From NCBI GenBank assembly GCA_001029635.1, contig CP011209.1, forward strand, positions 747,969 to 811,968: a DNA stretch of 64,000 bases. Reading direction: 5' to 3'. The stretch comes from Candidatus Wolfebacteria bacterium GW2011_GWB1_47_1 (GTDB taxonomy: Bacteria; Patescibacteriota; Minisyncoccia; UBA6257; UBA9933). The translations under genes were made by a program, and so were the position numbers. This document shows positions 1,206 to 18,154 of this stretch, piece after piece (positions within the stretch are counted from its first letter, which is position 1; each line of letters starts with the position of its first letter). The notes below the pieces were generated by a model. It saw only the letters and a program-made list of their open reading frames with translations, ran no database searches and was not told where the DNA came from.

Positions 1206-1215
1206 ATGATCAAAA

Positions 1216-1530: not shown

Positions 1531-1555
1531 ATTAAAAGCAACTTTTTCTTATTTT

Positions 1556-2260
1556 TTACTTATGATTACGTATGATTTCATCTACCTCATTAAATTCTTT
1601 CCATACTCCTTGGCATGAAGCAGAAAGATCGAATTCCGTTACTTTTGCGCTTGCTTTTTCTCGCAAGACCGCTTCCGAGCAATCAACTCTTTCGTAATCA
1701 TGATCATACAGACACGACGCTGGAGAATTAACATATGAGAGTGAGACACAAAAATTATAGTCGTGCTTTATTTTATTCTTTAATAGATTACAACTTCTCA
1801 TCTCTTCATTATACTTCTGTTCTATCACTGGGGATGCACATTCCCTTACTTTCTCCTTCAAGCTATCTATTTTCTGTAACGCCTGGATATAGGCGTTTTC
1901 CGTACTTATTCTTGCGTTATTATCTTTTATTGGCTCAATAATAACACCATAAACCAATGAGATGGCCATAAGAAATCCTATAGGCATCCCCAATAATGCA
2001 TAATGCTTTTTATTAAAACCAGCCATTAAAAATCTTTCACCTTTCAAAATATATAGGGTTGTCTTTGTCCCTAAAATTAAAAGTATATAGAAGAGGAGCA
2101 GGTATAGTGCAGCGTAAAAGAATACCTCACTCTGCGACCCGCCAAACCCATCTTCGCTTCCCATGCCAATAGCTATAGGTATGGCAATCAAAAATCCAAT
2201 AATAAGCACCACCTTTCCCAACCGATACAGCCAATCCAATTTTATTTCTCTCATATTCAT
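1556..2260 (-). CDS. membrane-anchored protein with Cys-rich C-terminal domain (234 aa)
   Basis: ORF track; two N-terminal TM helices, then a soluble domain with 6 Cys. Confidence 0.5.
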   Translation of the reverse strand: MNMREIKLDWLYRLGKVVLIIGFLIAIPIAIGMGSEDGFGGSQSEVFFYAALYLLLFYILLILGTKTTLYILKGERFLMAGFNKKHYALLGMPIGFLMAISLVYGVIIEPIKDNNARISTENAYIQALQKIDSLKEKVRECASPVIEQKYNEEMRSCNLLKNKIKHDYNFCVSLSYVNSPASCLYDHDYERVDCSEAVLREKASAKVTEFDLSASCQGVWKEFNEVDEIIRNHK

Positions 2261-2269
2261 AATTCTAAA

Positions 2270-2509
2270 TTACCACTTATAGGGATTTACATACCCTTTT
2301 TTCCCGGTATACGGATTATAATTTCCTTTTGTACTATAGTTATTGAATTTATACTTATCAGGACTGGTTTTGTAATAGGGCGCGACATAAGAGCTGCTCC
2401 GTGAGTTATAATAACCCTTGACTCGGACGGTCTTTGCTTCTGCTGAATTTATAAATATCAAAGAAAGTATGGTGATTAATGCGAAAATTGTAACGGAAAG
2501 TTTTTTCAT
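2270..2509 (-). CDS. small secreted Tyr/Asn/Lys-rich protein (79 aa)
   Basis: Signal-peptide-like N-terminus (MKKLSVTIFALITILSLIFINSAEA); repetitive YxxK/NPY composition. Confidence 0.45.
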   Translation of the reverse strand: MKKLSVTIFALITILSLIFINSAEAKTVRVKGYYNSRSSSYVAPYYKTSPDKYKFNNYSTKGNYNPYTGKKGYVNPYKW

Positions 2510-2519
2510 TAATTTATTT

Positions 2520-2807
2520 TTATTTACCTTGACGCAAGATATTTACATAATTCCTTAAACGATCGTACCTGTCTGCATAACCACCCCCGCATCCGCTGTT
2601 TTTAAATCCCCAATGATCCTCTTGCCAAATCACCCCCGTGTTAATGGCTCGGTTTCTATCATCTAAATAGACAACCTCAAAATCCCCTTCAATTTTTTTG
2701 AGCTCGGGAGCTGTGATAGCTCTACATACTACTGCTTGTTTTTTAATGATAGCATTTCCAACACTTATCCACTCCCCTGGCTGCAAATTTTTTAAATTTT
2801 CTGGCAT
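2520..2807 (-). CDS. hypothetical protein (~96 aa, start at MPENLKNL)
   Basis: ORF 2520..2870 trimmed to an internal ATG so that it does not overlap the downstream gene. Confidence 0.4.
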   Translation of the reverse strand: MPENLKNLQPGEWISVGNAIIKKQAVVCRAITAPELKKIEGDFEVVYLDDRNRAINTGVIWQEDHWGFKNSGCGGGYADRYDRLRNYVNILRQGK

Positions 2808-2829
2808 GGTTAATTTTATAAAAAGTGTC

Positions 2830-3291
2830 TTATTTAATATCCGGCAATAGCGTGTAAATATAATTTCCAATCAAGTTATTCCTCCCAAATTCTTTCTCCA
2901 ACCTACTAATCAGGTTTTCTCTAAACCAGTGGGGATTTTTATAATACGCTGTTTTTTCTTGCGCAATACGATCTTTAATCTTCTGCTCGGTATTTATGGT
3001 ATTTGTCGTATTTACTACTGGACTTGCCTTATACTCAGGCGCGGGCGTGGTATATCCAGTCCCATTTGCTCCATAAGTGCTCTTAATCGGCTCGATAGGC
3101 TGCGGAGCCGCCTTTGCATTATGACAATGATATTCTCCCGTACTTAAACCCCATGACGAGCAATTTGTTCGACAAGTATGACACCCGGAACTATCGGTCC
3201 TACCCGGATGCGCAAAAGAAACTACGGGGACCAATATCCCTATTAAACCCACCATAATTGCCGTTCGCTTCATTGCCATAAGTATGTTCAT
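2830..3291 (-). CDS. secreted Cys/His-rich protein
   Basis: Signal peptide MKRTAIMVGLIGILVPVVSFA followed by HPGRTDSSGCHTCRTNCSS...YHCH; probably metal-binding. Confidence 0.45.
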   Translation of the reverse strand: MNILMAMKRTAIMVGLIGILVPVVSFAHPGRTDSSGCHTCRTNCSSWGLSTGEYHCHNAKAAPQPIEPIKSTYGANGTGYTTPAPEYKASPVVNTTNTINTEQKIKDRIAQEKTAYYKNPHWFRENLISRLEKEFGRNNLIGNYIYTLLPDIK

Positions 3292-3413
3292 TAAATACCC
3301 TTTTGTAAACAATACCGGCCCACAAGCAGCAACCCGCTTGAAAACTCGGGCGAATAATTAACGACTTTAGATCTCTATCCCCAATGACCATATTACAACA
3401 CACCATTGATTTA

Positions 3414-3429
3414 TTGAAAAATTTTTCAA
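3414..3429. promoter_or_regulatory. perfect 16-bp palindrome ttgaaaaatttttcaa upstream of the secreted-protein operon
   Basis: Read directly from the sequence; candidate operator. Confidence 0.3.
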
Positions 3430-3517
3430 TCCCTGAAATAAAATATATTAGAACACACTTCTGATTAACTGAAAAATAAATCAGATTTTGAATATTTATT
3501 TATTACCAAACTTTGAC

Positions 3518-3775
3518 CTATCTAACCTCCAATAGGCCGCATCTCCTCATCTTATAGACATATTCCGGTATGCTTAACAATCTCTCATCTACAAACTTTT
3601 CCGTACAATTTTTATGGATTAGCGAGTCCTTATTCTTGTATTCTTCTCGAATACTCCTTACATACTCCCGCTCCCTATAAGATAGGGTTACATAAATAAT
3701 AGCCCCCACAAGGATCAAGAGCCCTATTAGTGAAATTCTATTGAAAACCTTTTCCTGTTGGTCTGGTTTTTCCAT
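3518..3775 (-). CDS. small membrane-anchored protein (85 aa)
   Basis: ORF track; one TM helix. Confidence 0.4.
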   Translation of the reverse strand: MEKPDQQEKVFNRISLIGLLILVGAIIYVTLSYREREYVRSIREEYKNKDSLIHKNCTEKFVDERLLSIPEYVYKMRRCGLLEVR

Positions 3776-3776
3776 T

Positions 3777-4202
3777 TTAGCGGAAAATTATATAGAGCCC
3801 AAAAATGAACGCATACCCCATTAACTCGTTAGCCTCCTCTTCATTCGGCCGGATCGTTTTATATATTCGGTTCACTTGATTGACCATATATAGCGCCACA
3901 ACTACTGGCAGTATCCTACCGGGTGCGTCAAACTTTACAATGATCAGTGTTAATAGAACTATATCACTAATGGCTCCACACGCCCCACTGGCGTAATCCC
4001 TGTAGCTCGCCTTCCCTTTACTTAACACGCCTCTGACTATGGAGTATAGCGCCATCTGCCCTACCATCCCTAATACAGACGACCAAAATAGCACAAAAAT
4101 TGCCCACCAAAATGGCAGTAGGAAAAATGGGGCGATGTATGCAATTAACCAAATGATCCGAAGTGAGTAGGTACGGATCACTAATTTATTAAATGCGTTC
4201 AT
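3777..4202 (-). CDS. membrane protein (141 aa)
   Basis: ORF track; 4 hydrophobic segments; stop abuts the next gene start. Confidence 0.45.
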   Translation of the reverse strand: MNAFNKLVIRTYSLRIIWLIAYIAPFFLLPFWWAIFVLFWSSVLGMVGQMALYSIVRGVLSKGKASYRDYASGACGAISDIVLLTLIIVKFDAPGRILPVVVALYMVNQVNRIYKTIRPNEEEANELMGYAFIFGLYIIFR

Positions 4203-4283
4203 TTTGGTTTTTAGGTTTTTAAACCTAAAATCTGGATTAATATATTAGGACACAAATCTAAAAAACTAAAAAATATATTCGTT

Positions 4284-4727
4284 TTATTTATTTTTTGTTA
4301 ACCTTATTTTTTCAACCTTATACGCTCTAAATGCCGTTCTTAGGAACAGGAACCATACAACCATTGCAACACCGGCGATCAATAAATTATCAGTAGATAT
4401 TGCCCCGCTCACCTTTGCCACCTTATCTAAATAAACAAATACATCCTTCACCGCCCATATAATCAAAACTATGGCCATTGTTAACGCCACTTTATTTCCC
4501 TTGTAGACAAAATACGCGGTAGATATATTTATAATCCCTGCGCTAAAAATATTAACCAGGGCCCTTTCAGATCCATCAATAAACAGGTATACGAATAAAT
4601 AAATTACGAATGGGGCAAGTAAAAATAACGCGGTTATTCCCCTATATGTTTTATATATAGGCAACGAACCGTACTTCTCTACCTGATCCCGCAAATAGTC
4701 CTTTGCAGGAATGGTTATGTCTTTCAT
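4284..4727 (-). CDS. membrane protein (start at MKDITIP)
   Basis: ORF 4284..4796 begins with TTG. The internal ATG at 4727 is the more plausible start. The product is hydrophobic. Confidence 0.45.
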   Translation of the reverse strand: MKDITIPAKDYLRDQVEKYGSLPIYKTYRGITALFLLAPFVIYLFVYLFIDGSERALVNIFSAGIINISTAYFVYKGNKVALTMAIVLIIWAVKDVFVYLDKVAKVSGAISTDNLLIAGVAMVVWFLFLRTAFRAYKVEKIRLTKNK

Positions 4728-4916
4728 ACTGTGGTGGGTTTTGCTGACCGGGAATGCATAAAGCTCCCCGCCAGCGATAGCCTTACGGCTACCCAAATCC
4801 CTTTCGAGATAAGACCCACCACAGGTGCTCTGACGAGGAGCTTAATGAACCTGTGGTGGGGGTTTTTGCCATATCTCGGGGATTTCCCAAGGGTTAGGCT
4901 ATGAAGTTATGCGTCT

Positions 4917-5693
4917 ATGGTATCACAGAAAACTGTATTTGTTAACAAAATGATATATAATTTTCGTATGTTAGCGTCGCCCGGAAATAACTCGTATTTA
5001 GACGAAGAGGAGGTTCTTTCGCTTTTGTCCACGAACCAATCATCCTCAAAACTTACCCCCTACATCGATCGTTTTATTAATAATACCCTCGCCTCTGATA
5101 CAGAAAATTATTACCTATTCGAGAGACAGAAAGAGAAAACATTATCAATTTTAAGGAAGGAGTCAAAAAAGTTTGGCGGCTCTTTTATTCTAAAATACCC
5201 ACGCGCCGATTTTGATAAGTCATATCTACCAATTCACTCCCTAATTGCTTTAAACTATCTCAAAGTAATCGACCTGCAAGAGATCTCAATTGATAAAGAT
5301 ATTTTTTCAGATCCCCTACACCTTTTCGATCAAACAATAGAAGCAAAAATAGTATTATCTGATGAAGTTATTTCTAATAAGCAGCCACTTAAACCAAAAT
5401 TCAGCTTCGCAGATGGGGTTTTACATTTTAAAAACAAAGATATTCTAATATCTAAAAGCTATACCAATCCTCGCAAACTCTTAGACATCATCCTAAATGA
5501 ACCTAATAAAACATGGGACTATAGTGAAATTTGGGAGGAGTGGGACGAATTAGAAAATTATAATCCTCTTAAACGGAATAGATTTTATAACGCCGCTTAT
5601 GATGTTAACCAAAAGGTGGGTATCGCGACCGATGTAAATGACTTTCTTGAATACACAACAAACGAAGTGAAGATTAACAAAAAATACCTTTGA
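4917..5693 (+). CDS. hypothetical protein (258 aa)
   Basis: ORF track; no recognisable motif. Confidence 0.45.
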   Translation: MVSQKTVFVNKMIYNFRMLASPGNNSYLDEEEVLSLLSTNQSSSKLTPYIDRFINNTLASDTENYYLFERQKEKTLSILRKESKKFGGSFILKYPRADFDKSYLPIHSLIALNYLKVIDLQEISIDKDIFSDPLHLFDQTIEAKIVLSDEVISNKQPLKPKFSFADGVLHFKNKDILISKSYTNPRKLLDIILNEPNKTWDYSEIWEEWDELENYNPLKRNRFYNAAYDVNQKVGIATDVNDFLEYTTNEVKINKKYL

Positions 5694-6180
5694 GTTAGTT
5701 TGCAAACTTTTGCAAACCACCTATTTGATACCGTTACTAAAAATAACGGTATTTTATGTTAACACCCGGACTCATTAACGAGTTTCAAAACATAATACAG
5801 AAAGAGTACGGCATCGCATTAAGCGATAGGGATGCCTCAGAAATCGCCAATAATTTGACCGGCTATTTTGACCTACTCGCTAAAATTCATCATCGAGATC
5901 AGACGAGCGCCGAGGCTCCTGATTTGATCCTCCCGAAGGGATCAAATCAGGGTCTTTGACCCCTTTTAAAATTATATCTAAGACTTGGCTGGTTTCGGGA
6001 ACTCCAAGGATAAAAAACACGGTTCCGGTAAAAACAAGTGTATTAGGGTTCTGATGCGAAAGCAGGGAAAACAAGTTGGCAACTCTTGCCCTGCCGTTGG
6101 ATCAGCGCCTTAATATAGCATTCGATTAGATATATACATACACCTAATCCAAACTTTTACTATCATCCAGGAGGTAAAAG

Positions 6181-6342
6181 TTGTTACCAACTATGAAAAA
6201 AATGAGTGGCGATAAGAAAGCACATATAGAAAAAGTTTTAATCCCCCAGAAAAGGATCAAACATAAGATGCTGATCAAGGGATTTAAGAAAAAAAGAGTT
6301 GACACAAAAGAAGCCATAAAACAGTTGCTTTCCATACAATAA
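6181..6342 (+). CDS. small Lys-rich basic protein (~53 aa), possible recombination directionality factor
   Basis: AGGAGG lies 6 nt before TTG 6181, with an in-frame ATG at 6193. Translation is MKKMSGDKKAHIEKVLIPQKRIKHKMLIKGFKKKRVDTKEAIKQLLSIQ. It sits immediately upstream of a serine recombinase. Confidence 0.25.
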   Translation: MLPTMKKMSGDKKAHIEKVLIPQKRIKHKMLIKGFKKKRVDTKEAIKQLLSIQ

Positions 6343-6394
6343 ATCATCCCCAATGTGCAGAAAAAATAAAAAAGGTTTACACTATCGTTAAAAT

Positions 6395-8044
6395 ATGAAA
6401 TCAATCATATACGCTCGCGTATCGTCAAAAGAACAGGAAGAAACTGGATACTCTCTCCCCTCGCAAGAGAAGCTTTTGCGGGATTACGCCGATCGAAAGG
6501 AGCTTGCCATCGCAAAGACTTTTTCTATTGCGGAGTCCGCAAGCGGGGTAAAACAGCGAAAAGTATTTGGCGAGATGATCAAGCTTGCAGAGAACAATAA
6601 GATAAACAATATACTATGTGAGAAGGTTGACCGACTCACTCGCAACCTAAAGGAGGCGGTTATGGTAAATGAATGGCTTGAGGAAGATGAGTTGCGGAAG
6701 ATCCATTTCGTGAAACAAAATCTAATCATCCATAAAAATGCTAAATCTGATGAGAAATTTCGATGGGATATCGAAATCATTCTTGCCAAAAAATATATTT
6801 CCAACCTTTCCGAGGAGGTAAAGAAGGGACAAAAGGAAAAGATAGCCCAAGGATGGCTCCCTACTGCCCCTGTAATGGGCTATAAGACGGTTGGCGATAA
6901 AGGACACAGGATCCATGTAATCGACCCTACTGCGGCGCCCGTAGCGCAGAAAATGTTCGAATTATATGCCACCGGCAATTTTTCCATATCAGTCATTACT
7001 TCGTTCGTTAAGGAGTCTGGAGTGAAAACGCGCGCCGGTCGACCAATAGTAAAAACCCGCATTCACCAACTCCTCTCCGATCCATTCTACTACGGGAAAA
7101 TTCAGTGGAACGATAAGCTATATCCGGGCAAGCATGACCCTCTTATCACTAAGGAATTATTTGATGAGGTTCAGCGAATGCTTAAGCGAGGGACCAAAGC
7201 CCCTGCCTATCAAAAGCACTTCCCTATCTTCAAGGGAAAGATCTTTTGCGGCGAATGTGGTGGCACCATCACTTGGGAGGTGCAAAAGGGTCATTGGTAC
7301 GGCCACTGCAACCACTATAAGCCGTGTGCTCAAAAGAAATACACAAAACAGGGATCTGTCGAGGACCAGCTCTTTGCTTATTTTTCCGAAGTAGCGCCTA
7401 AGAATGAGCAAGTACTTCAATGGCTTGAAAAGGCCCTTAAAGCAGACCACAGAAGCGAAATAGACTATCGCACATCTGCCAAAGATAATCTACTCCGTGA
7501 TCTTGAGCGCATTGAGAAGCGTTTCGAGGGCTTATATGATGACAAGCTCGACGGCAAGATACTCCCCGCTTTCTACGAACGCAAGGCAGCGGAATTTACA
7601 GAGCAAAAAGAAACGCTTGTACAACAACTCGCAAACTTGAATAAAAGCCAAGATGAATATTATGAAGCCGGGTATGCCATTCACGAGCTGGCGCTAAAAT
7701 CCCGGTCGATCTATTCAAGCCCACATGCAACTACCGAGGAGAAGAGATTGCTTTTGAGTTATATATTTTCGAACATCACGATAAAGGATGGTGAAATCAA
7801 GCCAGAATACACTTCGGCCTTCGAATTTATGTCCAAGTGGATGCCGATCGTAAATAACACTTTCGAACTCGAAAATGTCGGCATCAATACTAACGAAAAA
7901 GGCACTTTCGTGCCTTCTCGTACTATTTTGCTCCGCACTATGGACGAGTTTAGAACTCTTAACTGGTCCTCTATTGAAAACGAACTTAGGTTTAGCGGTA
8001 TCTTAAGCTTTTTCCCAAGTGCCATTATTCAGAACCAATTTTGA
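6395..8044 (+). CDS. large serine recombinase (resolvase/invertase N-domain, recombinase domain and zinc ribbon)
   Basis: N-terminus YARVSSKEQ with catalytic Ser; VDRLTRN; CGECGG...CNHYKPC zinc ribbon; 549 aa. Confidence 0.85.
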   Translation: MKSIIYARVSSKEQEETGYSLPSQEKLLRDYADRKELAIAKTFSIAESASGVKQRKVFGEMIKLAENNKINNILCEKVDRLTRNLKEAVMVNEWLEEDELRKIHFVKQNLIIHKNAKSDEKFRWDIEIILAKKYISNLSEEVKKGQKEKIAQGWLPTAPVMGYKTVGDKGHRIHVIDPTAAPVAQKMFELYATGNFSISVITSFVKESGVKTRAGRPIVKTRIHQLLSDPFYYGKIQWNDKLYPGKHDPLITKELFDEVQRMLKRGTKAPAYQKHFPIFKGKIFCGECGGTITWEVQKGHWYGHCNHYKPCAQKKYTKQGSVEDQLFAYFSEVAPKNEQVLQWLEKALKADHRSEIDYRTSAKDNLLRDLERIEKRFEGLYDDKLDGKILPAFYERKAAEFTEQKETLVQQLANLNKSQDEYYEAGYAIHELALKSRSIYSSPHATTEEKRLLLSYIFSNITIKDGEIKPEYTSAFEFMSKWMPIVNNTFELENVGINTNEKGTFVPSRTILLRTMDEFRTLNWSSIENELRFSGILSFFPSAIIQNQF

Positions 8045-8045
8045 A

Positions 8046-8849
8046 TTAAACACAATTCTTCATCAACTCATTTATATACTTAGTAAAGCATTTATAGAAG
8101 TTATCGGCAGAAATATAGTACTTCTCGAAATATAGCTTCGTACCTGATGCTGGGATATTATCAACAAAGTTCAGATTTCTATAATTTGTCCTTAAGCGCA
8201 TTAGATGAAAAAAGTCGAAGATGGATACTTTTATGTTTCTCTTGAAATTATCTATTCTAATCTTGTCTTTGGTCCGCCTACCTGATAAACCATTTACTAT
8301 TTTATAGTTATCGATTTTATCATTTGCAACCTTTTTCATTAAAAGCCTGTAAATGGTATCGTCAGCAACGCCCGTCTTCAGATGCTCCCCTGCTTGTGTG
8401 GTAAAACTTAAAATCTCTTCACCAAAAACCAAGTTTAAGAGCGGTTTATTGAACTGTATTTCAGAGCTTTCAAGCATCTTAGTAAATGCGTTTACGCACT
8501 CGTGATGTCCCGCAGTTAAAGACGACATTTTACCGCTAATAATGCAATCGGAGATGCAGAGCAAATGATAAATCAAATAATAAGTTTTAACAGGTAGCCA
8601 AAGGACCGATGCCGATGAATAGTCTTCATCAAAACATACAATTTCGTATTCTTGGTCAATCGACTTTTTTGTCAATCTAACCAACTGTATTTTATCTTTC
8701 AACTTTCCGCCCTCAGACTTAGGTAGCTTCGAATTAGGCGAGGAAATTATTTCAAGATTATTGGAAAGCTTCGCGATAAGAGCTGCATATTTTAAGTGAG
8801 TCTCAAAATCCAATCGGTCGCTTGTCGGACGAGGGGCGTAAATTGCCAT
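8046..8849 (-). CDS. hypothetical protein (267 aa)
   Basis: ORF track; no recognisable motif; lies between the recombinase and the R-M system. Confidence 0.5.
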   Translation of the reverse strand: MAIYAPRPTSDRLDFETHLKYAALIAKLSNNLEIISSPNSKLPKSEGGKLKDKIQLVRLTKKSIDQEYEIVCFDEDYSSASVLWLPVKTYYLIYHLLCISDCIISGKMSSLTAGHHECVNAFTKMLESSEIQFNKPLLNLVFGEEILSFTTQAGEHLKTGVADDTIYRLLMKKVANDKIDNYKIVNGLSGRRTKDKIRIDNFKRNIKVSIFDFFHLMRLRTNYRNLNFVDNIPASGTKLYFEKYYISADNFYKCFTKYINELMKNCV

Positions 8850-8889
8850 ATGTTTGAATTATATTCCGCTGTAAAGTAAAGTAAAGAGT

Positions 8890-10449
8890 ATGGACATCTA
8901 CCGAGTTGATGTAAATCATACTCAAAAGGGATATTTAGATGAGAAAGAGCTACTTATTTTATACTGGCTCCTTAGGAAAAAAAGCATCTCCACTCTCTGG
9001 AGCAATGTATTTAAGCCGAATACCGATTTTACGCTTCACGCCCCAAGTAATCCAAGTGAAATAGCAACGCTTGAAGATGATATAAATACCTCGATTGAAC
9101 GGCATACTCAAAATATACGCACTAAAGTACAATCGTCTTCAATTATTTCCTATCTACTTGAATTAGGTAAAACCTTTGATGCAAGGGGGTTTTCCATATC
9201 TTGCAATGCAGACTATAGCCTTGTCGAGGGCGGGTTTCTTTGCAATTACGTCGCAGACGCAATGTATGAATATCTTCAAGATACCGATAAAGGACGCGCT
9301 AATAAGAAAAAGTATGGCGATTTAAATAAAGAGCAGAAAAACTTTCTTCAAGATGTGGTCAAGAATGGTAATTTAGACACAATAAAACTTTCAAGACTTG
9401 CCAAAACTCCCATAAAAGAATATGAGGAAGCCATCTTAGATAGACACGCGGATGAAGATTTTATCGAATTAGTAAATAAGTTAATCACGGAATATGACGG
9501 CGGTAAATGGAATACGGAAGATGTCGAGAAGTTTTTAGCGATTTATTATCGGCACAACAAGGAGAACTTTAAAAAGCACGCCCTATCATCTGGGCTTCTT
9601 ACTAAAAATGATAGCCAGACTGCATTATCAAAGCTAATTTTCGAGCATATTGATGTTCGTTTAAGTATAAAAGATACTCAAAAACTTAAGGATTATTTAG
9701 ATAAATATATTGCTTTCTTTATTGACGATGAACTGAATGGCCCCAGCAAGAGCGGCTTAACTGCAACCTTTTTCTCTAATGGACTAACACTACCCCTATA
9801 TACTCAATTTTTTGGGTTTAAAAAACAAAAGAATATCTTAGTTAAGTATATTGAAGGAAAGTATGAAGAATACCAAAGAAACGACTTGGAAATCGGACAC
9901 CCGTATTTTGAACCTGAGTATATAGGGGATAATAAAAATGATACGGTAAAGATTACCATAGCAGAAAAGGACAAACTGAAATCCCTCTTTCTATTTGTTC
10001 ATACAATGTTAGCTCTTGAGTATACAAGGTGTCTGAATGTTGAAGAGTTTTCCTACGGTACTACTGGCTTATTCGACCTATATGACAGAGGTTTTCTTTT
10101 TAAGGTTAATATAGATAAGGGAACTTTTTCCGAAGAAACAAAGCAAAGAACGGGTATTGCTTTTGACCTTGATAAATCTCGCTTCTATGTTCAGGGAAAA
10201 GAAATAAAGCTGCTCAAGTTCAAGGACGAATATCATACCCTCAGAGTTATATTTGAAGACCCTAATGAACTATCCAAAGAGTGGTTTTTCTCTGAGATTG
10301 GAGAGAAAATTGATGAGAATAACTTAGACGATAAGAAATACTATAACGCAATATATCAACTGCGATTAAAGCTTGAAAAGCAGGGCATAAATGACTTTTT
10401 TATTACAACAAAACAATCAGTAAAAATAAGCCCCAAATACCTGTCTTAG
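8890..10449 (+). CDS. hypothetical protein (519 aa)
   Basis: ORF track; no Walker or nuclease motif seen; divergent from 8046..8849. Confidence 0.5.
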   Translation: MDIYRVDVNHTQKGYLDEKELLILYWLLRKKSISTLWSNVFKPNTDFTLHAPSNPSEIATLEDDINTSIERHTQNIRTKVQSSSIISYLLELGKTFDARGFSISCNADYSLVEGGFLCNYVADAMYEYLQDTDKGRANKKKYGDLNKEQKNFLQDVVKNGNLDTIKLSRLAKTPIKEYEEAILDRHADEDFIELVNKLITEYDGGKWNTEDVEKFLAIYYRHNKENFKKHALSSGLLTKNDSQTALSKLIFEHIDVRLSIKDTQKLKDYLDKYIAFFIDDELNGPSKSGLTATFFSNGLTLPLYTQFFGFKKQKNILVKYIEGKYEEYQRNDLEIGHPYFEPEYIGDNKNDTVKITIAEKDKLKSLFLFVHTMLALEYTRCLNVEEFSYGTTGLFDLYDRGFLFKVNIDKGTFSEETKQRTGIAFDLDKSRFYVQGKEIKLLKFKDEYHTLRVIFEDPNELSKEWFFSEIGEKIDENNLDDKKYYNAIYQLRLKLEKQGINDFFITTKQSVKISPKYLS

Positions 10450-10516
10450 ATTTGTCTTAAGTTAACTCAAGACAACATATCGATAACCTGTAGGCATAAC
10501 CTACGGGTTATTTCTT

Positions 10517-10714
10517 ATGCAGGAAGTTGCCGTCGAAAATGAAGTTAGAAAAGGCTTCAAAATAAATGATTTATCTCTTGAGGAAAGGCAAAGACTGGTC
10601 GGTGCTTTTGCGTGGCTCATAGAACAAGACAAGAAGCAAAATCCTGCACTTTATCAACCTAAAAAACAAGACGAAGATGATAGATACAATATGCCTTCTG
10701 ATACCCAAGAATAG
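10517..10714 (+). CDS. small acidic hypothetical protein (65 aa)
   Basis: ORF track; preceded by the hairpin aacctgtaggcataacctacgggtt. Confidence 0.3.
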   Translation: MQEVAVENEVRKGFKINDLSLEERQRLVGAFAWLIEQDKKQNPALYQPKKQDEDDRYNMPSDTQE

Positions 10715-11819
10715 GATGACTTATCTATTAGGGCCATCCAGTTGGGAACTATATTCCAAGACGGACCAATACGAAAAATATGTTCGCAACCCCAGCAAGA
10801 CAGAAAAAGAAACAGGACAATACTTCCCACGACTAACTGGATACAAGCGACGCTTTGCCCAAGATGCGAATGTTCGCATAGAGCTGTCCGTCCCCAAATT
10901 GCTGTATCGCAATAATCTCGACGAACTTGAAGAAAAAGACTTTCCGCGAGTAATCGAGATACTACTAAGGAGACTTGAGACTATGGGAGTGGTAGTTGAT
11001 AAGTCAGTTCTTGAAAATGCCTCAGTAAGCTCAGTTCATTTTTCAAAGAACATTCTACTCCAAGACGGGTATACCGCAAACCATTTAATCTCCGAAATGA
11101 ATAAGGTAAACCTTAAAAAGAACTTCGATTTTGCCAAAACAAGATTTATGAATGATGGGCAGAGCCTCTATGCCCATACAACCTCTCATCAGCTTGTAAT
11201 ATACGACAAGATAGCCGATATGGGGAAAGATGCGAAGAGAGCAATGGATAAAGACCAGACCTCGCGCCAAAAAAGTCTATTCGCAGAGTTAAGTAAAGCG
11301 AGCGAGCAACTGGAAATTATACGCTTTGAAATCCGCCTCAACCACAAGCAGAAAATGAACAAACTCCTTGAGAACTTAGGGTACGAGAAAAACCCAGTTT
11401 TCAGGCAGGTATTCAATACCAAAATGAGCAAAACCGTTGTTGCGCATTACTGGGAAAAACTTATCAAAGAGCGCAATTTGGGCATTTTCTCAATATCGCT
11501 AAGTATTAAGGATGTACTTCGAACTTTATTCTTAGCGGATAAAACACTAAAACCCAAACAGGCTATATATCTTCTCGGACTTTTTATGCTTGCAAAGGAC
11601 GAAGGTGGACTAAGGCAACTGCGGACTATTGTTTCAAAAAGGTCTCGCGATAGGACTTGGTATCGCATCGCACAAGATATGCAACAAGCCAGCAAGCTAA
11701 TTACAAAAAATAAGCTCCGAGATTGGGTTACGCAGATTGACAAAAGCCTTGATGAATATGTGCCATATAAGCATAAAAAATCAGCTATTATTAGTCCTCT
11801 GCCCCACTACTTAGCATAG
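10677..11819 (+). CDS. hypothetical protein (380 aa), possibly a replication or mobilisation protein of the element
   Basis: ORF track; an alternative start at 10716 (MTYLLGP) would avoid overlap; the functional guess rests on context only. Confidence 0.5.
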   Translation: MIDTICLLIPKNRMTYLLGPSSWELYSKTDQYEKYVRNPSKTEKETGQYFPRLTGYKRRFAQDANVRIELSVPKLLYRNNLDELEEKDFPRVIEILLRRLETMGVVVDKSVLENASVSSVHFSKNILLQDGYTANHLISEMNKVNLKKNFDFAKTRFMNDGQSLYAHTTSHQLVIYDKIADMGKDAKRAMDKDQTSRQKSLFAELSKASEQLEIIRFEIRLNHKQKMNKLLENLGYEKNPVFRQVFNTKMSKTVVAHYWEKLIKERNLGIFSISLSIKDVLRTLFLADKTLKPKQAIYLLGLFMLAKDEGGLRQLRTIVSKRSRDRTWYRIAQDMQQASKLITKNKLRDWVTQIDKSLDEYVPYKHKKSAIISPLPHYLA

Positions 11820-12228
11820 TGCTACTCCATAAATGGTCCCAAATATAAACATTACAAAATAAATTATTATGAAAAATAAAAAGTATAAAATCGATAAGGA
11901 CGAACGACTTGTTGGAATTATAAAAATGGCCTTTGAGCAGTATTATCGCAAGGTTATCTCGGATAATATAAAGAGGTCTTTGGCGCAAAAGCGAGCCAAG
12001 TTGTCCACTAACCCTAAAGTTGCTCTGTAAAGTAATGTAAAGTATAATGAATACCATTATGGAGCCTGAGGAACTCCCAAATGAGAAGGTTAATCGGCGT
12101 ATGGCTATTTTGTTTTGGACATTATCAGTCTGCGCCTTTATGATTATATTTCAGTTAGCAAATCTTATGGTCCCCGAATTATTTCCTCCGTCTTCTATCG
12201 CTCAATCAATATAAGCAGCTGCAACATT

Positions 12229-12411
12229 ATGAACACTAACAAAAAGAACTTCTACAAAGCAGAAGACCTCGCGAAGTTATTAGAGGTAAACATTATGACG
12301 ATTTACCGATATATTAAGGCTGGTCGCTTAAAGGCGTATAAAATTGGTCGTGAGTTTCGAATTGATAAAATTGAGTTTAGTGCTTTTTTAGAAAAAGCGC
12401 GGACTAAATAA
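12229..12411 (+). CDS. excisionase-family HTH DNA-binding protein
   Basis: IMTIYRYIKAGRLKAYKIGREFRIDKIEFSAFLE matches the excisionase/MerR-type HTH. The ORF track entry starts further upstream, at 12115. Confidence 0.65.
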   Translation: MNTNKKNFYKAEDLAKLLEVNIMTIYRYIKAGRLKAYKIGREFRIDKIEFSAFLEKARTK

Positions 12412-12413
12412 AT

Positions 12414-14207
12414 ATGACCGAAAAAGAATTATCACAACAAAAAGAAAGTCGCATCATCAAACTTGAGAAGGAAATTGAAAGATGGAAAAAGGCGGTCAAA
12501 ACCCAGCGCTACGGTTTAGTATGGCTCGATGTGCCTGAAGCATTTGAAGACGATGTCGAAAATAAATTACCCATTCTTGAGGAAGTGCCTAAAAAGGCGA
12601 TAAGGAGTAAGGATGCCAAGCCAACTCATCTACTTATTGAAGGCGATAATTATCACGCGCTTACTTGTTTAAACTACACGCACAAGGGAAAGATTGATGT
12701 AATCTATATAGACCCCCCGTACAATACTGGCTCCGATGGTTTTAGATATAAAGACAAGAGGATATTAAAAGAGTATCCAGACGGTACGGAAGTCCCGAAA
12801 GACCATCCATTTAGGCACAGCTATTGGCTATCTTTTATGAGTAAAAGGTTGGAACTTGCAAAAAGCCTACTAAAAGATACTGGTACTATATTTATTTCGA
12901 TAAATGAAGATGAGTTTGCGCAGCTCAAGTTACTTTGCGACCAAACATTTGGATTAGAAAATTATCTAACAATGTTCACTATTAAGGTAAGACACGAGGA
13001 GCGCATCCTTAAAGGCGATAAAGATTTCCACGAAGTCGTGGAATATCTTTTAATGTATAGATGCTCTTCTGCCTATAAAACCACGAAGAAAATCTATGAT
13101 AATACTTCATTGGATGAATATATTTATCAAGTCATTGAAAAAATAGAGCACCCTAAATCTGTTAAGCTTGGCAATAAGATGGTTGATTATTTTGAGCCAT
13201 CAGAATATGAGATTATAAAGGTGCCAGCGAGTGAGCACAACTTAAAGAAAATAAATATCCGTGGTTCTCTAAAAGAGGGCAATAGTAGTGGTAGATTTTA
13301 TATGGCTCATATTGCTTCAAGAGGTACCAAAGGTGTGCTTTATAAGGTACCAGATATGGGCAATGACAAGTTTGGACATAGATATTTTCTAATACCCGCA
13401 AAAGAAAGCAGGCTAAATGGGGATTATTTTCAGGGGGTACCACTGGACATACAGGACACGAAGAAAGTCCCCTACCCTAACTATTTTGACTTTGAAGCAC
13501 AGTTTAATAGCGTTGGGTATGAGGGGGGTGTCAGTTTCGGGGGCGGCAAAAAGCCAGTCGAGTTTCTTGCGCATTTTATAAATATCGGTTGTACGGATAA
13601 AAATGCAACTATATTAGATTTTTTTGCTGGCTCGGGAAGCACTGGGCACGCAGTTATGCAAATGAATGAAGCCGATAAGGGCAAGAGACAATTTATTTTG
13701 ATTACAAATGATAACGAAATCGTCAAAGATAAAGTTTATCATCCAATGTCTGAGGCGTGCCTGCCACGAATGCAGAACTTGATTAAAGGCTATGACAAGA
13801 ACCCGAGCTTGGGAAACTCAATTAAATACTACAAAACAGCTTTTGTAGGCAAACATAACATTCTTGATGCTGACGACAAAGATAAAATACAGCTCGCCCA
13901 TAATGCAGGGGGTATGCTTGCGATAGCTGAGAATACCTTAGAGCAAATTAAGGGAAACGATTATTGGCAGATTTTTGAAAGTGAGACCAGAATGACTGCT
14001 GTATATTTTAGAGAAGAGCAAGACCAGCTCGATGATTTTATAGACGAAGTCCTATTACTTGGAAAGCCAGTAACCGTATATATGTTTAGCTGGGAAGAAA
14101 AAGTGGATATTGTTGATTTTGAAGAAAATCGAAATATCAGCCTCAAAACAATACCGCAACCCATTCTTGAGATATATAAGCAGATATATAACATTGCTCA
14201 GTTATGA
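12414..14207 (+). CDS. mod: Type III R-M DNA methyltransferase (Mod, beta-class N6-adenine/N4-cytosine MTase)
   Basis: Motif IV IYIDPPYNTG precedes motif I FFAGSGSTGH (beta order), with a TRD between them. The stop overlaps the res start (ATGA). Confidence 0.8.
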   Translation: MTEKELSQQKESRIIKLEKEIERWKKAVKTQRYGLVWLDVPEAFEDDVENKLPILEEVPKKAIRSKDAKPTHLLIEGDNYHALTCLNYTHKGKIDVIYIDPPYNTGSDGFRYKDKRILKEYPDGTEVPKDHPFRHSYWLSFMSKRLELAKSLLKDTGTIFISINEDEFAQLKLLCDQTFGLENYLTMFTIKVRHEERILKGDKDFHEVVEYLLMYRCSSAYKTTKKIYDNTSLDEYIYQVIEKIEHPKSVKLGNKMVDYFEPSEYEIIKVPASEHNLKKINIRGSLKEGNSSGRFYMAHIASRGTKGVLYKVPDMGNDKFGHRYFLIPAKESRLNGDYFQGVPLDIQDTKKVPYPNYFDFEAQFNSVGYEGGVSFGGGKKPVEFLAHFINIGCTDKNATILDFFAGSGSTGHAVMQMNEADKGKRQFILITNDNEIVKDKVYHPMSEACLPRMQNLIKGYDKNPSLGNSIKYYKTAFVGKHNILDADDKDKIQLAHNAGGMLAIAENTLEQIKGNDYWQIFESETRMTAVYFREEQDQLDDFIDEVLLLGKPVTVYMFSWEEKVDIVDFEENRNISLKTIPQPILEIYKQIYNIAQL

Positions 14208-16579
14208 ACATATTCAACCCATCAAAATTTCAAAAAGATGCCGTCATAAATCTAACAGAGATTTTTACTACGGTATGGAAGCAACAAGGTAGACAATTAC
14301 CTATTGTTTTTAAATCCCCGACTGGAAGTGGTAAGACTTTTATGACCTCCCTTTTCATCCGCGGCCTTAACCACCTACCACAGTGGAAAGAAGATAAAGC
14401 ATTTATATGGATTACTTTTAGCGATGATTTGGCTATGCAAAGCAAAAATAAGTTTCTTGAGTATTTTGAAAATATGCTTGAAAATAGAGCTTTGACCGTT
14501 GCAGATATAAATCAAGGCAAACTCTACCAAAATGATATTTTATTTTTAAACTGGCAAAAGGTTACTGCCAAAAATGCTAATACGCGATTAATTCGCCGCC
14601 CCGAAGATAAGGAATGGCAAAAGGAACAGGGAGAATACTTTGAAGATGTGGTCGAACAAACTCAAGCCGATAGTAGACAAATTATCTTAATAATTGATGA
14701 GGCTCACAAGAATAAAGACACAAAACTCGCAAAGGATATTATTGATAAAATTGACCCTAAGGTAATTCTTCACATTACTGCGACACCAAACGAGAAAGAC
14801 GAACTTGAAGCTCGTCGTATTGGCAGTTTTTATGAGGTCCCCCGAGAGGAAGTTGTTGAGCAGGGCTTAATCAAAGAAGCAATCATTACTCAAACGGAAG
14901 AAGATTTCGAGGGTATGTCGGGAAAAGACCTTGATAAAATCCTCCTCGAAAATGGGATGAAAAAACGAGAGGAATTAAAAGCAGAACTTAAATCACTGGG
15001 TAAGAATATAAACCCTTTGATGCTTATACAGTTACCAAATGATGATGATAAACTTATAGAAAAGGGCGAACAGAAGAAGGAGGATATCGTTACTGATTAT
15101 CTTCTTAAAAATAAGGTTCCCGAGCATAGGATAGCAAAATGGTTTAATAAGAACCCTCGGCCAAATAATTTAGAAGAGCTCAGCGATGAGCACGACTTTT
15201 TACTCTTTAAACAGGCGGCTGGAACAGGCTGGGATTGCCCTCGTGCATCAGTACTTGTAATGTTTAGGGAAATACAATCGAATACCTTTTATACTCAAAC
15301 CGTTGGGCGTATTTTAAGAATGCCTGAGCCTCACGCAAAAGAAGATTATAAAAATAACCCCAATCTTCGCTTGGGATATTTATATACGAACTACAAGCGC
15401 AAGGAGGTAATAATACCAGACCAAAATCCCGCCAATCAACCTTTGACTGAGTTTGCCCATAGGAAGAAGGACATAAGCAATATCGAATTACCATCTGACT
15501 ATATTTCTCGCTTAGATTATGGCGATATTCGCGTATCTTCTAAATTTCAAGAAGTATTTAAAACAGAACTAAATAAGCACTTCGGGATTACTAATAATGA
15601 TATTCTTGGAAAAGCAGAAACGAAGCTTAAAAAGGCAGGGTTGGACATTAGCGATACTTTAGTAAATGAAGTTATTGCAAATGCTCGTTTCGAGGATTAT
15701 GACAATCTCGCCTTTGATTTCAGTAAAAAAGGCAGCGATATTTCACTTGAAATGTCAGTAAGTGATATTGAAAAGACTTTTAATTATCTTTGTTATCAAA
15801 TCCTAAGGGAGCAGGAAGACGAGGGAGCTAAGTACTCAAATGTGGCTCGCTCTTGGTCAGTCTTAAAACAAGCGCTTCGCGTCTGGTTTAAAATCGTTTT
15901 GCGAGATGACCATATTTACTGGTATAAGATATTTATCAAAGATGTTCGCAAGGGCGCTGAGAGCAAATTTCGCCCAGCAATAACAAGGGCCTTACGAGCT
16001 TATAAGCCAATTTCTGACAGTCTACTAACCGACAAGAAAATAAAGGTAGAGGAAAAGGAAGCATATATTTTTACCATACAAGGCGAATATGGGTATCCCG
16101 AGCAATACAAAGTTGTCCCTCAGAAGTTATGCGCCTTGGATAAGTTTTACTTGCCCGAAGATTACAATGGGCGTAAAAATGAAATTGCCTTTGTTGAATA
16201 TCTGGAAAAAAAGAAAGGAAAAATTGATTGGTGGTTTAAAAATGGCAATCAGGGAAAGAAGTACTTGGGCGTTAAATACACAAACTCAATAACGAACGAG
16301 GATGGCTTATTTTACCCCGACTGGATTATTCGTTTTCCTGATGGCCGTATAGGTATTTTCGATACCAAAAAAGGAGATACTGCTACAAGCACTGAAACAG
16401 CAGATAAGACAAAGGCATTGCAACAAAAACTTAAGAGTTTTGGAAAAAAGTTTCTTGGCGGTATCGCATATCAAGAAGCGGGCATTTGGTACTACAATGA
16501 TAGCCCCAAATACTCTTTTAAAGAGGGGCAATCGGTAAACGATAGCAAAGAATGGAAGCCTTTTGAGGATTTATTCTAA
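14204..16579 (+). CDS. res: Type III restriction enzyme Res subunit (SF2 helicase plus PD-DxK nuclease)
   Basis: Walker A SPTGSGKT; DEAH box LIIDEAHKN; motif VI TQTVGRILR; C-terminal PDW...IGIFDTKKG nuclease motif. Confidence 0.75.
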   Translation: MNIFNPSKFQKDAVINLTEIFTTVWKQQGRQLPIVFKSPTGSGKTFMTSLFIRGLNHLPQWKEDKAFIWITFSDDLAMQSKNKFLEYFENMLENRALTVADINQGKLYQNDILFLNWQKVTAKNANTRLIRRPEDKEWQKEQGEYFEDVVEQTQADSRQIILIIDEAHKNKDTKLAKDIIDKIDPKVILHITATPNEKDELEARRIGSFYEVPREEVVEQGLIKEAIITQTEEDFEGMSGKDLDKILLENGMKKREELKAELKSLGKNINPLMLIQLPNDDDKLIEKGEQKKEDIVTDYLLKNKVPEHRIAKWFNKNPRPNNLEELSDEHDFLLFKQAAGTGWDCPRASVLVMFREIQSNTFYTQTVGRILRMPEPHAKEDYKNNPNLRLGYLYTNYKRKEVIIPDQNPANQPLTEFAHRKKDISNIELPSDYISRLDYGDIRVSSKFQEVFKTELNKHFGITNNDILGKAETKLKKAGLDISDTLVNEVIANARFEDYDNLAFDFSKKGSDISLEMSVSDIEKTFNYLCYQILREQEDEGAKYSNVARSWSVLKQALRVWFKIVLRDDHIYWYKIFIKDVRKGAESKFRPAITRALRAYKPISDSLLTDKKIKVEEKEAYIFTIQGEYGYPEQYKVVPQKLCALDKFYLPEDYNGRKNEIAFVEYLEKKKGKIDWWFKNGNQGKKYLGVKYTNSITNEDGLFYPDWIIRFPDGRIGIFDTKKGDTATSTETADKTKALQQKLKSFGKKFLGGIAYQEAGIWYYNDSPKYSFKEGQSVNDSKEWKPFEDLF

Positions 16580-16584
16580 ACATT

Positions 16585-18120
16585 ATGAAAGCAATAATCG
16601 TCGCACGAGTATCAACTGAAGAACAAAGAGAAGCTGGTAATTCCCTACCCGCTCAGCTTACTCGTATGCAAGATTATTGCGAGCGGAATGGCTATTCTAT
16701 AATCGAGACTTTTAGTTTTGATGAGAGTGCTTACAAAACCAAGCGCGACGAGTTCGATAAAATCATTGCCTGCGTAAACGGCACAAAAGAAAAGGTTGCC
16801 GTTTGCTTTGATAAAGTAGACCGCCTATCACGCAATATCTTTGATAAGCGGGTTGCCTTACTTTACGAGCGAGCTGTTGATGATAAAATCGAGCTTCATT
16901 TTGTCTCCGATAACCAAGTCATCAACAATAAAATGTCGGCTGGCGACAAGTTTGCGTTCGGAATGAAACTCGGGTTGTCTAAATACTATTCGGATGCAAT
17001 CAGCGATAATGTAAAACGCGCGTTTGAGCAAAAGCGCAGAAATGGCGAATGGACCAGTGCCGTTCGATTGGGATATCTTAATGTTTCCTTAGATGCAGAA
17101 CAGCGGTTACGCAAGGATATTATCATAGACCCCGAGCGAGGGCATCTTATTCAAAAACTATTTGAGCTATATGCAACTGGGAACTACTCACTTGAGACGC
17201 TACGAATAAAAATGATTGAAATGGGCTTAGTGAGCCAAAAGGGTTTCAAGCCGTCAAAAAGCTGTATCGATAATATACTAAATGACACTTTTTACTGCGG
17301 TGTCGCTATGTCAAAGAAATATGGCTCTTTCCCCCATAGATACCCTCGTCTAATAACAAGGGAACTTTTTGATAGGTGCCAAGAGATACGCTTAAATCGC
17401 GTCAAAATGCCCAATAAGGCGCTTTCCAAGGACTTTATATTCAAAGGGTTACTCCGATGTCAGAACTGCGGTTGTTCAATAAGCGCCGAGAGAAAGATAA
17501 AGAAAAGTGGCCGTGAGTTTGTCTACTATTCCTGCACTAATGGCAAAGGTATATGCAAACGGGTGTATATACCCGAAAAAGACCTTCTAAGGCCCGTGTA
17601 CGAGGTTTTAGAGCGGTTTGAGAGCATAACAGAAGAGACACAAAATGAGCTTGTCGCCGAGCTTCGTAAGAATACGGAGGCCGAGGTAGTATTTCACAAG
17701 GCTCAGATAAACCGCATACGAGGCGAATACGAACAGATTAAGACGAAAGATGACCGACTACTTGAGGCATATTTGGACCAGTGTATTACTAAGGACATCT
17801 ATGACAAAAAACATCAAGAGTATGCGGATAAGCTACAGGTTTTGAATATTGAACTTTCCGAGTATACAAAAGCGGACCACGATTACCAAACGACTATTGC
17901 TACCGTGCTTTCTGTCGCTCGCAGAGCAAAGACTATATTTGAGAAAAGTTCTGAAGTTGCAGGAAAACGGGCGTTTCTGAATTACATACTTCAGAACCCG
18001 ACTGTAAACGAAAAAACGCTTGGTTTTACCTTGCGTTCTCCGTTCAACTTAGTCCTAAAACTTGCTGATTGTCCTAACTTGCTCCCCGGGAGGGATTCGA
18101 ACCCCCGACCATCTCGTTAA
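16585..18120 (+). CDS. large serine recombinase (paralog of 6395..8044)
   Basis: VARVSTEEQ catalytic Ser; VDRLSRN; CQNCGC...CTNGKGIC zinc ribbon. The last 13 codons are encoded by the tRNA-Asn 3' half. Confidence 0.85.
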   Translation: MKAIIVARVSTEEQREAGNSLPAQLTRMQDYCERNGYSIIETFSFDESAYKTKRDEFDKIIACVNGTKEKVAVCFDKVDRLSRNIFDKRVALLYERAVDDKIELHFVSDNQVINNKMSAGDKFAFGMKLGLSKYYSDAISDNVKRAFEQKRRNGEWTSAVRLGYLNVSLDAEQRLRKDIIIDPERGHLIQKLFELYATGNYSLETLRIKMIEMGLVSQKGFKPSKSCIDNILNDTFYCGVAMSKKYGSFPHRYPRLITRELFDRCQEIRLNRVKMPNKALSKDFIFKGLLRCQNCGCSISAERKIKKSGREFVYYSCTNGKGICKRVYIPEKDLLRPVYEVLERFESITEETQNELVAELRKNTEAEVVFHKAQINRIRGEYEQIKTKDDRLLEAYLDQCITKDIYDKKHQEYADKLQVLNIELSEYTKADHDYQTTIATVLSVARRAKTIFEKSSEVAGKRAFLNYILQNPTVNEKTLGFTLRSPFNLVLKLADCPNLLPGRDSNPRPSR

Positions 18121-18154
18121 CAGCGAGCCGCTCTACCACTGAGCTACCAGGGAA
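18082..18154 (-). tRNA. tRNA-Asn (GTT)
   Basis: Reverse complement TCCCTGGTAGCTCAGTGGTAGAGCGGCTCGCTGTTAACGAGATGGTCGGGGGTTCGAATCCCTCCCGGGGAG folds as a cloverleaf with a GTT anticodon and a GTTCGAATC T-loop. Confidence 0.85.

Follow-up and report, generated by a model that had tools for sequence, protein, structure and literature searches.

A stretch of 64,000 nucleotides from Candidatus Wolfebacteria bacterium GW2011_GWB1_47_1 (contig CP011209.1, positions 747,969 to 811,968; hereafter the window) carries, next to a Type III restriction-modification (R-M) system, a block of four genes whose products of 267, 519, 65 and 380 amino acids (aa) are here called p267, p519, p65 and p380. Our analysis makes it probable that this block is for the most part the replication and control backbone of an integrative element that carries the R-M system, with p380 as its rolling-circle initiator. 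The element is integrated at the 3' end of a tRNA-Asn gene by a large serine recombinase, and on comparison with related loci the four-gene block is mostly a constant vehicle and the R-M system its variable load. An earlier note on this DNA had favoured a novel defence module and had offered, as the alternative, a replication or mobilisation function for the 380-aa protein; the fold of p380, shared with the Rep_trans and G2P proteins, its active-site motifs and the conserved order of the element bear out the alternative. The finding is more ordinary than a new defence system, yet it exposes an apparently undescribed and widespread family of elements in the Candidate Phyla Radiation (CPR), one that shows some unusual traits.

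The open reading frames (ORFs) of 267, 519, 65 and 380 aa lie between a serine recombinase gene and the R-M genes exactly as they had been listed, and all four are real genes, each with homologues. The description of them as uncharacterised is also confirmed, since none of the four scores above the curated thresholds of Pfam, PHROGs, NCBIfam or PADLOC. The earlier note had left out a 60-aa gene of the HTH_17 family and two small ORFs, which stand between the block and the R-M system. Between position 1 and about 18,100 the guanine-cytosine (GC) content is 38%; in the host sequence beyond, it is 49%. The 5-nt core at the 3' end of tRNA-Asn is matched by a second copy on the left side of the block, and the two cores therefore delimit an element of 10,151 bp which holds all four genes, the block forming its left half (Table 1). 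The last 13 codons of sr511, the recombinase at the right end, are the antisense sequence of tRNA-Asn (LLPGRDSNPRPSR).

The pairs of left and right attachment sites compared in 16 other loci share a (T)GCTC(C) core, the tRNA's own 3' acceptor end. On the right side of the element this core joins the tRNA to the P arm that belongs to the recombinase; on the left side, in most of the 16 loci, it is placed between a terminator-like hairpin of the host with a T-run and a conserved P' arm. A long direct repeat of a tRNA fragment was searched for as attachment site and none was found, and a core of only about 5 nt is as expected for a serine recombinase. Of the 57 recombinase genes listed, 35 overlap an antisense tRNA at their 3' end, namely tRNA-Asn in 30 cases, tRNA-Gln in 4 and tRNA-His in 1.

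The identification of p380 rests on its relatives, its predicted structure and its motifs taken together. Homologues number 927 at E <= 1e-3, and the family profile, searched against 1.8 billion cluster representatives, recovered 1072 clusters at 50% identity. The N-terminus MIDTICLLIPK is common to the homologues and begins 13 codons before the start in the public annotation; its conservation indicates that the start at 10677 is the correct one. When 131 diverse relatives were compared with Pfam at E <= 0.01, 30 matched Phage_CRI, the family of the G2P N-terminal domain (best E 1.2e-8), and 8 matched Rep_trans (best E 1.2e-7). The p380 of the window itself has no match to Phage_CRI (PF05144, cut-off 21.7 bits), and a homologue that is 30% identical to it reaches 24.8 bits, above that cut-off. 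Sequence and profile searches of the PDB with p380 returned nothing significant.

An AlphaFold run on 14 close homologues gave a predicted local distance difference test (pLDDT) score of 39.6, and with 125 diverse representatives added a confident model was obtained (pLDDT 93.2, predicted template-modelling score, pTM, 0.91). On searching the PDB with this model, Foldseek ranked the rolling-circle initiator RepSTK1 (4cij) first with a probability of 0.90, all other entries having 0.10 or less. Against the viral structures of BFVD the top matches had a probability of 1.00 and E-values of 5e-8 to 1e-6, and Inoviridae G2P proteins are among them. The fold of p380 is that of a solved member of the Rep_trans/Phage_CRI families.

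Rep_trans proteins carry the motifs N' (Asp), I (RxD), II (T/SxY/ExG), III (YxKxxE) and IV (W/LxRxE), with similar motifs in Phage_CRI (PMC5714925), and the catalytic Tyr of motif III sits in a beta-strand (Carr et al. 2016, summarised in PMC5714925). Motif III is present in p380: Y176 and K178 are invariant among the 131 relatives, with D (116) or E (15) at position 181. Motif IV appears as I/V/L214-x-R216-x-E218, with E218 in 131/131 and R216 in 125/131, the other 6 having K. D3, found in 128 of the 131, would fit the Asp of motif N'. Motif I takes the form K/R67-x-E69, with E replacing D, and motif II is unrecognisable save for an invariant G161. In the model, Y176 falls in the strand 171-177, and R216 and E218 in the strand 214-221. 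We therefore read p380 as a divergent member of the Rep_trans/G2P superfamily that is predicted to work like the initiators of these families, belonging by score to neither of the two Pfam families. Homology to replication proteins, as found here for p380, is what the earlier note itself had named as speaking against a defence module.

Membership in this superfamily also brings in a second possible function, as Rep_trans includes the relaxases of ICEBs1 and Tn916, which are classed as MOBT (PMC5714925). p380 could be a relaxase of this type and the element an integrative mobilizable element (IME), nicked at its transfer origin oriT and passed on as single-stranded DNA via the transfer apparatus of a helper, with p65 and p519 as accessory proteins of the relaxosome. 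A relaxase or Rep protein combined with a serine or tyrosine integrase on a small element is typical of IMEs (PMC5704250). The identity of 67-82% between p380 proteins from metagenome-assembled genomes (MAGs) assigned to different Patescibacteria lineages implies frequent horizontal transfer, as this explanation would have it. However, the element encodes neither a coupling protein nor any component of type IV secretion, more of the relatives match phage G2P (30) than Rep_trans (8), and the viral structural matches are replication proteins of Inoviridae. Conjugation machinery is not known to be a general feature of Patescibacteria. We regard a relaxase function as unlikely in comparison with a rolling-circle initiator, although the two roles need not be exclusive, since ICE (integrative and conjugative element) relaxases also drive rolling-circle replication.

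The conservation of gene order provides the second line of evidence. A scan of one genome per species yielded 67 loci with p380 relatives across Patescibacteria, and their ORFs were searched with the proteins of the window; the denominators given here are the loci with room to see the feature concerned. The order is fixed: a variable protein, p65, p380, HTH_17, one to three cargo genes which almost always constitute an R-M system, a large serine recombinase and the tRNA. HTH_17 follows p380 in 60 of 62 loci, and a recombinase occupies the position of sr511 in 37 of 39. Of the 49 loci examined, 48 have between HTH_17 and the recombinase a compact run of 1-3 genes that share one strand. Pfam searches with 90 cargo proteins gave 41 matches to DNA methyltransferases (C5 cytosine methylase 15, N6_N4_Mtase 14, D12 class 8 and N6_Mtase 4), ResIII was matched by 9 of the 90, and other cargo includes type II endonucleases (HpaII, BpuJI, HindIII, ThaI, TdeIII, MvaI/BcnI and Eco57I-type), and SacI and HindIII examples were also seen. 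It is this order, conserved in 67 genomes with a varying content of the R-M slot, which identifies the Type III system as cargo of the element and not as its neighbour. At one locus (L060) Res is 85% identical to that of the window whereas Rep is only 46% identical, which shows that cargo moves between divergent backbones.

On comparing the R-M proteins of the window with those of L022, L060 and L064, Res was found to align end to end at 83-85% identity, and the best local alignment of Mod to L022 and L060 spans only about 190-220 residues. The pattern fits a swap of the target-recognition domain, by which specificity would change while the type of cargo is kept.

The named homologues of the p380, p519 and p267 families are nearly all from CPR bacteria, with one from Margulisiibacteriota. 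Five p380 loci (L043, L044, L055, L070 and L072) come from MAGs labelled as Pacearchaeota, Promethearchaeota or Gammaproteobacteria, and these are probably mis-binned CPR contigs; in L070 the p380 homologue, 33% identical, is accompanied by a tRNA-Gln and a recombinase. No relatives of p380 were found among the plasmids of PLSDB, the phages of INPHARED or IMG/VR. A literature search returned no description of such an element in CPR, its coverage being incomplete, so that this is absence of evidence only; we consider the novelty of the family probable.

The matches to Inoviridae raise the question whether the element could be an integrated inovirus genome or a satellite such as RS1 of CTXphi, with p380 in the place of gpII or RstA. 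Besides the structural matches to G2P and the Pfam matches to Phage_CRI, the size of the element agrees with this, inoviruses being similar to its 7-10 kb, and some small ORFs encode hydrophobic stretches (e.g. 12047-12214). However, no morphogenesis ATPase of the Zot/pI type and no recognisable coat or adsorption gene was found in the window or in the 67 loci, neither IMG/VR nor the phage collection contains a relative, and most of the coding capacity is taken up by the R-M system and the serine recombinase. An inoviral origin is accordingly highly improbable, and the least credible of the alternatives.

The same comparison bears on the proposal of the earlier note, that the four genes are a novel anti-phage defence or toxin-like maintenance module beside an R-M system, as in a defence island. 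They do lie on a mobile element and adjoin R-M genes, and p267 gives this proposal some substance. Its 58 homologues (39-78% identity) include genes at the extreme ends of three other kinds of integrative element (Table 1), unrelated to this one, and one of these also carries AbiJ and GmrSD-like genes. At a further locus (L001) the same left-end position is held by a gene with the SocA_Panacea antitoxin domain. Invariant residues of p267 include R12, D14, T17, W84-L-P86, H95 and H115, among others, and H18 is nearly invariant; the RxxxxxH spacing of R12 and H18 is as in HEPN-type nucleases, a resemblance only. p267 has no match in Pfam, searched member by member, in PDB or in PADLOC. It is a portable terminal accessory gene, judged by the contexts of its homologues, and falls outside the core, with a possible role in defence, exclusion or recombination directionality.

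For the other three genes the defence proposal is not supported. p65 and p380 stay constant next to defence genes proper that vary, p380 is by its fold and motifs a replication initiator, and none of the four proteins has a match in PADLOC-DB 2.0 at E <= 0.1, where Mod and Res match Type III models. The pairing of the 267- and 519-aa genes, whose co-occurrence elsewhere the earlier note had regarded as informative, is not conserved: p267 is present in 4 of 48 loci and p519-like proteins in 18 of 55. A defence or maintenance module is in our view very unlikely to account for the block as a whole.

p519 occupies the variable slot of the backbone. It has 121 homologues, many of which cover only 20-55% of its length, and in other loci the slot is filled by at least 4 alternative classes of protein with different C-termini. 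Searched member by member, neither the p519 family nor ten alternative slot proteins had a match in Pfam, and PDB searches with p519 gave nothing significant. A 258-aa ORF further upstream, p258, matches p519 residues 367-518 (29% identity, E 9e-13). The family profile of p519 matched the DNA-binding domains of ArlR and AdeR in PDB weakly (E 0.05; 0.36 with a profile of the domain only), the last ~100 residues are colinear with a winged helix of the OmpR/PhoB type over most of the domain, again with weak statistics, and hhalign of the C-terminal domain with the DNA-binding domain of PhoB was likewise weak (E 0.34). The C-terminal domain has no match in Pfam. We take the possibility that p519 ends in an OmpR-like winged helix as a lead and not as a result.

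p65 is a small protein with the family core LVGAFxWLIEEDKKQNPxLY, and homologues of about 50 aa stand immediately upstream of p380 in 49 of 63 loci. Across the family the p65 gene ends right at the start of p380 or runs into it, suggesting that the translation of the two is coupled. A hairpin followed by a U-run ends at the p65 start codon and is found in most loci. RNAalifold showed compensatory double changes at 5 of its 8 pairs and, for 23 of 33 sequences, a U.G wobble that is compatible with the plus strand only; covariation and a wobble which fit only the plus-strand transcript mean that the structure is one of RNA. We infer a candidate terminator or attenuator that limits Rep expression, which we presume to resemble the control of pT181 by attenuation. 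A second, imperfect inverted repeat, TTGTCTTAAG/CTCAAGACAA, is located at 10453-10476, just past the stop codon of p519.

Both operons of the element are preceded by putative promoters with related repeats. In the window the repeat of the backbone operon ends 3 nt before the ATG of p519, and TGTAAA(G/C)TnAAGTAAAG stands in the same place upstream of every class of variable-slot gene in most loci. The second promoter, a near-consensus TTGCTC-17-TATAAT with a direct repeat in its spacer, belongs to a block that 38 distinct locus sequences have in common and that invariably precedes the HTH_17 gene at a short distance. Since a TGTAAAG-type motif is present in both promoters, whatever the proteins nearby, one conserved regulator encoded by the element would be expected to act on both operons.

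Two ORFs, 11869-12030 (53 aa) and 12047-12214 (55 aa, hydrophobic), take up an additional stretch of about 360 bp, located between p380 and HTH_17, which is absent from most related elements. In five other elements a short ORF of 157-258 aa between Rep and HTH_17 matches part of the serine recombinase (Table 1); it may be a small resolvase-like gene, serving for example in multimer resolution.

The left end of the element leads to an unexpected property of the recombinase gene. At least 20 loci have, 1-3 kb upstream of p380, a short ORF whose similarity to sr549, the recombinase encoded on the left of the block, is confined to the final ~35 residues of that protein. Its motif, FRTxNWxxIxxxLxFSGIL..LQN followed by the stop codon, was found in 34 distinct sequences and lies in each of them at the element's left end. 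Entropy of the P' arm at codon positions 1, 2 and 3 is 0.84, 0.60 and 1.21; with variation highest at third positions, the arm evolves as coding sequence. Where a recombinase gene does not terminate within a tRNA, it continues into the sequence of the P' tail. These observations are most simply explained by a position of attP within the recombinase gene. In the excised form the gene would then specify a longer recombinase with the conserved ~35-aa tail, and integration would swap this tail for tRNA-derived codons. Such a swap of the C-terminus could act as a state-dependent switch of the recombinase, either of its directionality or of its expression.

In the window the P' arm is itself read by another gene. 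sr549 (549 aa, 29% identical to sr511) extends past the 7930 junction and takes in the element's P' arm. It is part of an upstream unit, A, together with p258 and a 67-aa ORF; the element discussed so far, B, is directly downstream, and the two units look like a tandem array at the same tRNA site. L008, L040 and L041 likewise have sr549-like recombinases upstream of their p380 elements, and ORFs with the sr549 tail adjoin these recombinases in L041 and in L039. Low GC continues upstream of the unit to window position 1, and no second P' remnant marking the left end of unit A was found within the window. Positions 1-4800 contain minus-strand genes for small, strongly hydrophobic proteins at 35-40% GC, which may be cargo of the upstream element or a separate island. 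Junctions of the attP type (P-core-P') were found on 18 metagenome contigs, none of which is demonstrably circular.

Considering these results together, the following mechanism is proposed. The recombinase would excise the element as a circle, probably with the help of the HTH_17 protein, and p380 would nick a double-strand origin via Tyr176 and start rolling-circle replication of this circle, which would maintain or amplify the element up to its re-integration or its passage into another cell. p65 would be a cofactor of Rep, or an upstream ORF translationally coupled to p380, and the hairpin and U-run before it would throttle Rep expression by a pT181-like attenuation. p519 and its alternatives would be DNA-binding regulators or specificity factors, and the TGTAAAG-repeat operator in both promoters would switch the two operons together. 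The R-M cargo would benefit the host and probably also stabilise the element.

Several observations weigh against a rolling-circle backbone of this kind and limit our confidence in it. The p380 of the window matches Rep_trans (PF02486) with E 0.0022 and 18.0 bits, below the 29.6-bit cut-off, and the structural match to RepSTK1 is modest (TM 0.32-0.43, E 0.024). A search for the nick site, using pT181- and f1-like TAATAG motifs and inverted repeats, found no convincing site and no origin. Because Rep_trans includes conjugative relaxases, replication and mobilisation are inseparable by sequence alone. Terminal overlaps indicative of an excised circle were sought in small contigs and none was found, and as tandem arrays give the same junction, the 18 contigs with P-core-P' could equally be arrays. 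The roles suggested for p65, p519 and p267 derive from position and weak similarity only.

Table 1. Features of the element and its surroundings, with positions in the window unless another locus is named
Feature	Positions	Strand	Description or evidence
Upstream unit A	4917-8044		p258, 67-aa ORF and sr549
p258	4917-5693		258-aa ORF
Serine recombinase gene sr549	6395-8044		left flank of the four-gene block
Integrated element (B)	7930-18085		10,151 bp
attL core GCTCC, left end of element	7930-7934	.	matches 5-nt core at tRNA-Asn 3' end
P' arm, detached recombinase C-terminal coding segment	7935-8044	+	ends in RTMDEFRTLNWSSIENELRFSGILSFFPSAIIQNQF and stop; here read as the sr549 tail
p267, accessory gene at element terminus	8046-8849	-	267 aa
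Putative promoter/operator of backbone operon	8854-8886	+	-35-like TTGAAT 8854-8859; (GTAAA)x3 repeat TGTAAAGTAAAGTAAAG 8870-8886
p519, modular protein in variable slot	8890-10449	+	519 aa; N-terminal ~365 aa and C-terminal ~150 aa
RNA hairpin and U-run	10483-10516	+	AUAACCUGUAGG-CAUAA-CCUACGGGUUAU; ends at p65 start codon; most loci
p65, small conserved protein	10517-10714	+	65 aa, containing LVGAFAWLIEQDKKQNPALY; overlaps p380 start by 38 nt
p380, candidate catalytic Tyr176	10677-11819	+	380 aa; Pfam in relatives, AF2 model, Foldseek, motifs
Putative promoter/operator of HTH_17-R-M-recombinase operon	12000-12048	+	upstream of HTH_17
Box GTTGTCCAC	12000-12008		
-35 TTGCTC	12020-12025		
Direct repeat TGTAAAG-N3-TGTAAAG	12026-12042		in promoter spacer
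-10 TATAAT	12043-12048		near-consensus TTGCTC-17-TATAAT
HTH_17 (excisionase-type)	12229-12411	+	60 aa; Pfam HTH_17 3.2e-12; first gene of cargo/recombinase operon
Type III R-M cargo	12414-16579	+	mod 12414-14207, res 14204-16579; Pfam and PADLOC matches
Large serine recombinase sr511	16585-18120	+	Resolvase PF00239, Recombinase PF07508, Zn_ribbon_recom PF13408
tRNA-Asn(gtt)	18081-18153	-	ARAGORN; 3' end GCTCC 18081-18085 = attR core
Recombinase-like short ORFs in other loci	L008 11067-11591; L020 11066-11566; L027 6974-7447; L041 11052-11609; L045 6282-7058		
p267 homologue, context 1			adjoins tyrosine integrase
p267 homologue, context 2			far end of element with serine recombinase, HTH_17, AAA_25 protein, AbiJ/GmrSD-like genes
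p267 homologue, context 3			far end of element with HARE-HTH, HTH_17, type IIG R-M, serine recombinase

Even where the unknown genes beside an R-M system are, as here, a vehicle and no new weapon, they can be informative about the host. Patescibacteria form a large and mostly uncultured share of bacterial diversity, and for the most part they lack CRISPR and probably depend on R-M systems. Elements of so common a family, nearly every copy of which carries a different R-M system, would give these bacteria a main route for the exchange of defence specificities. A more far-reaching combination of claims, that this is an undescribed family of integrative rolling-circle shuttles for R-M systems, that its recombinase is re-tailed by integration and that p267 is a new terminal gene for defence or exclusion, is put forward tentatively, as we hold the whole of it to be somewhat doubtful. 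If the re-tailing is true, it would be a built-in switch of directionality or expression of a kind not described for serine integrases, and the split recombinase gene is a testable idea on how directionality is controlled in these enzymes. Natural serine integrases with a defined attP, a tRNA-Asn attB and a replication module could also provide parts for genetic tools in CPR bacteria, for which almost none exist at present.

Among known systems, the Rep_trans (PF02486) initiators, such as RepC/RepD of pT181 and the Rep of pSTK1 (4cij), are the best structural match of p380 in PDB. Like them, p380 has within YxKxx(D/E) an invariant Tyr that sits in a beta-strand; a strand with hxRxE comes after it, and a conserved N-terminal Asp before it. 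Unlike them, it has 11-12% identity to 4cij, scores below the Pfam cut-off, shows K/RxE in place of motif I and an unrecognisable motif II, has an additional C-terminal helical half of about 130 aa, and is encoded by an integrated element and no plasmid. Phage_CRI (PF05144; G2P, with gpII of M13 and Cri) is the family matched by most of those p380 relatives that match Pfam at all; however, the rest of an inovirus genome is absent here and the p380 of the window is itself without a match to PF05144.

At the level of the whole element, the closest likeness is to the IMEs of Firmicutes (reviewed in PMC5704250): small elements with an integrase, an excisionase-type HTH protein, a nickase of the Rep_trans superfamily and adaptive cargo. 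The present family differs in its Patescibacteria hosts, in having no sequence relatives in the plasmid and phage collections, in its dedicated R-M slot and in the attP placed inside the recombinase gene. This last feature recalls the integration-dependent immunity of mycobacteriophage BPs, in which integration cuts an ORF at attP so that the C-terminus of the product differs by state (PMC4557955). In BPs, however, the gene that is split encodes the repressor (PMC4557955), whereas here it is that of the large serine recombinase.

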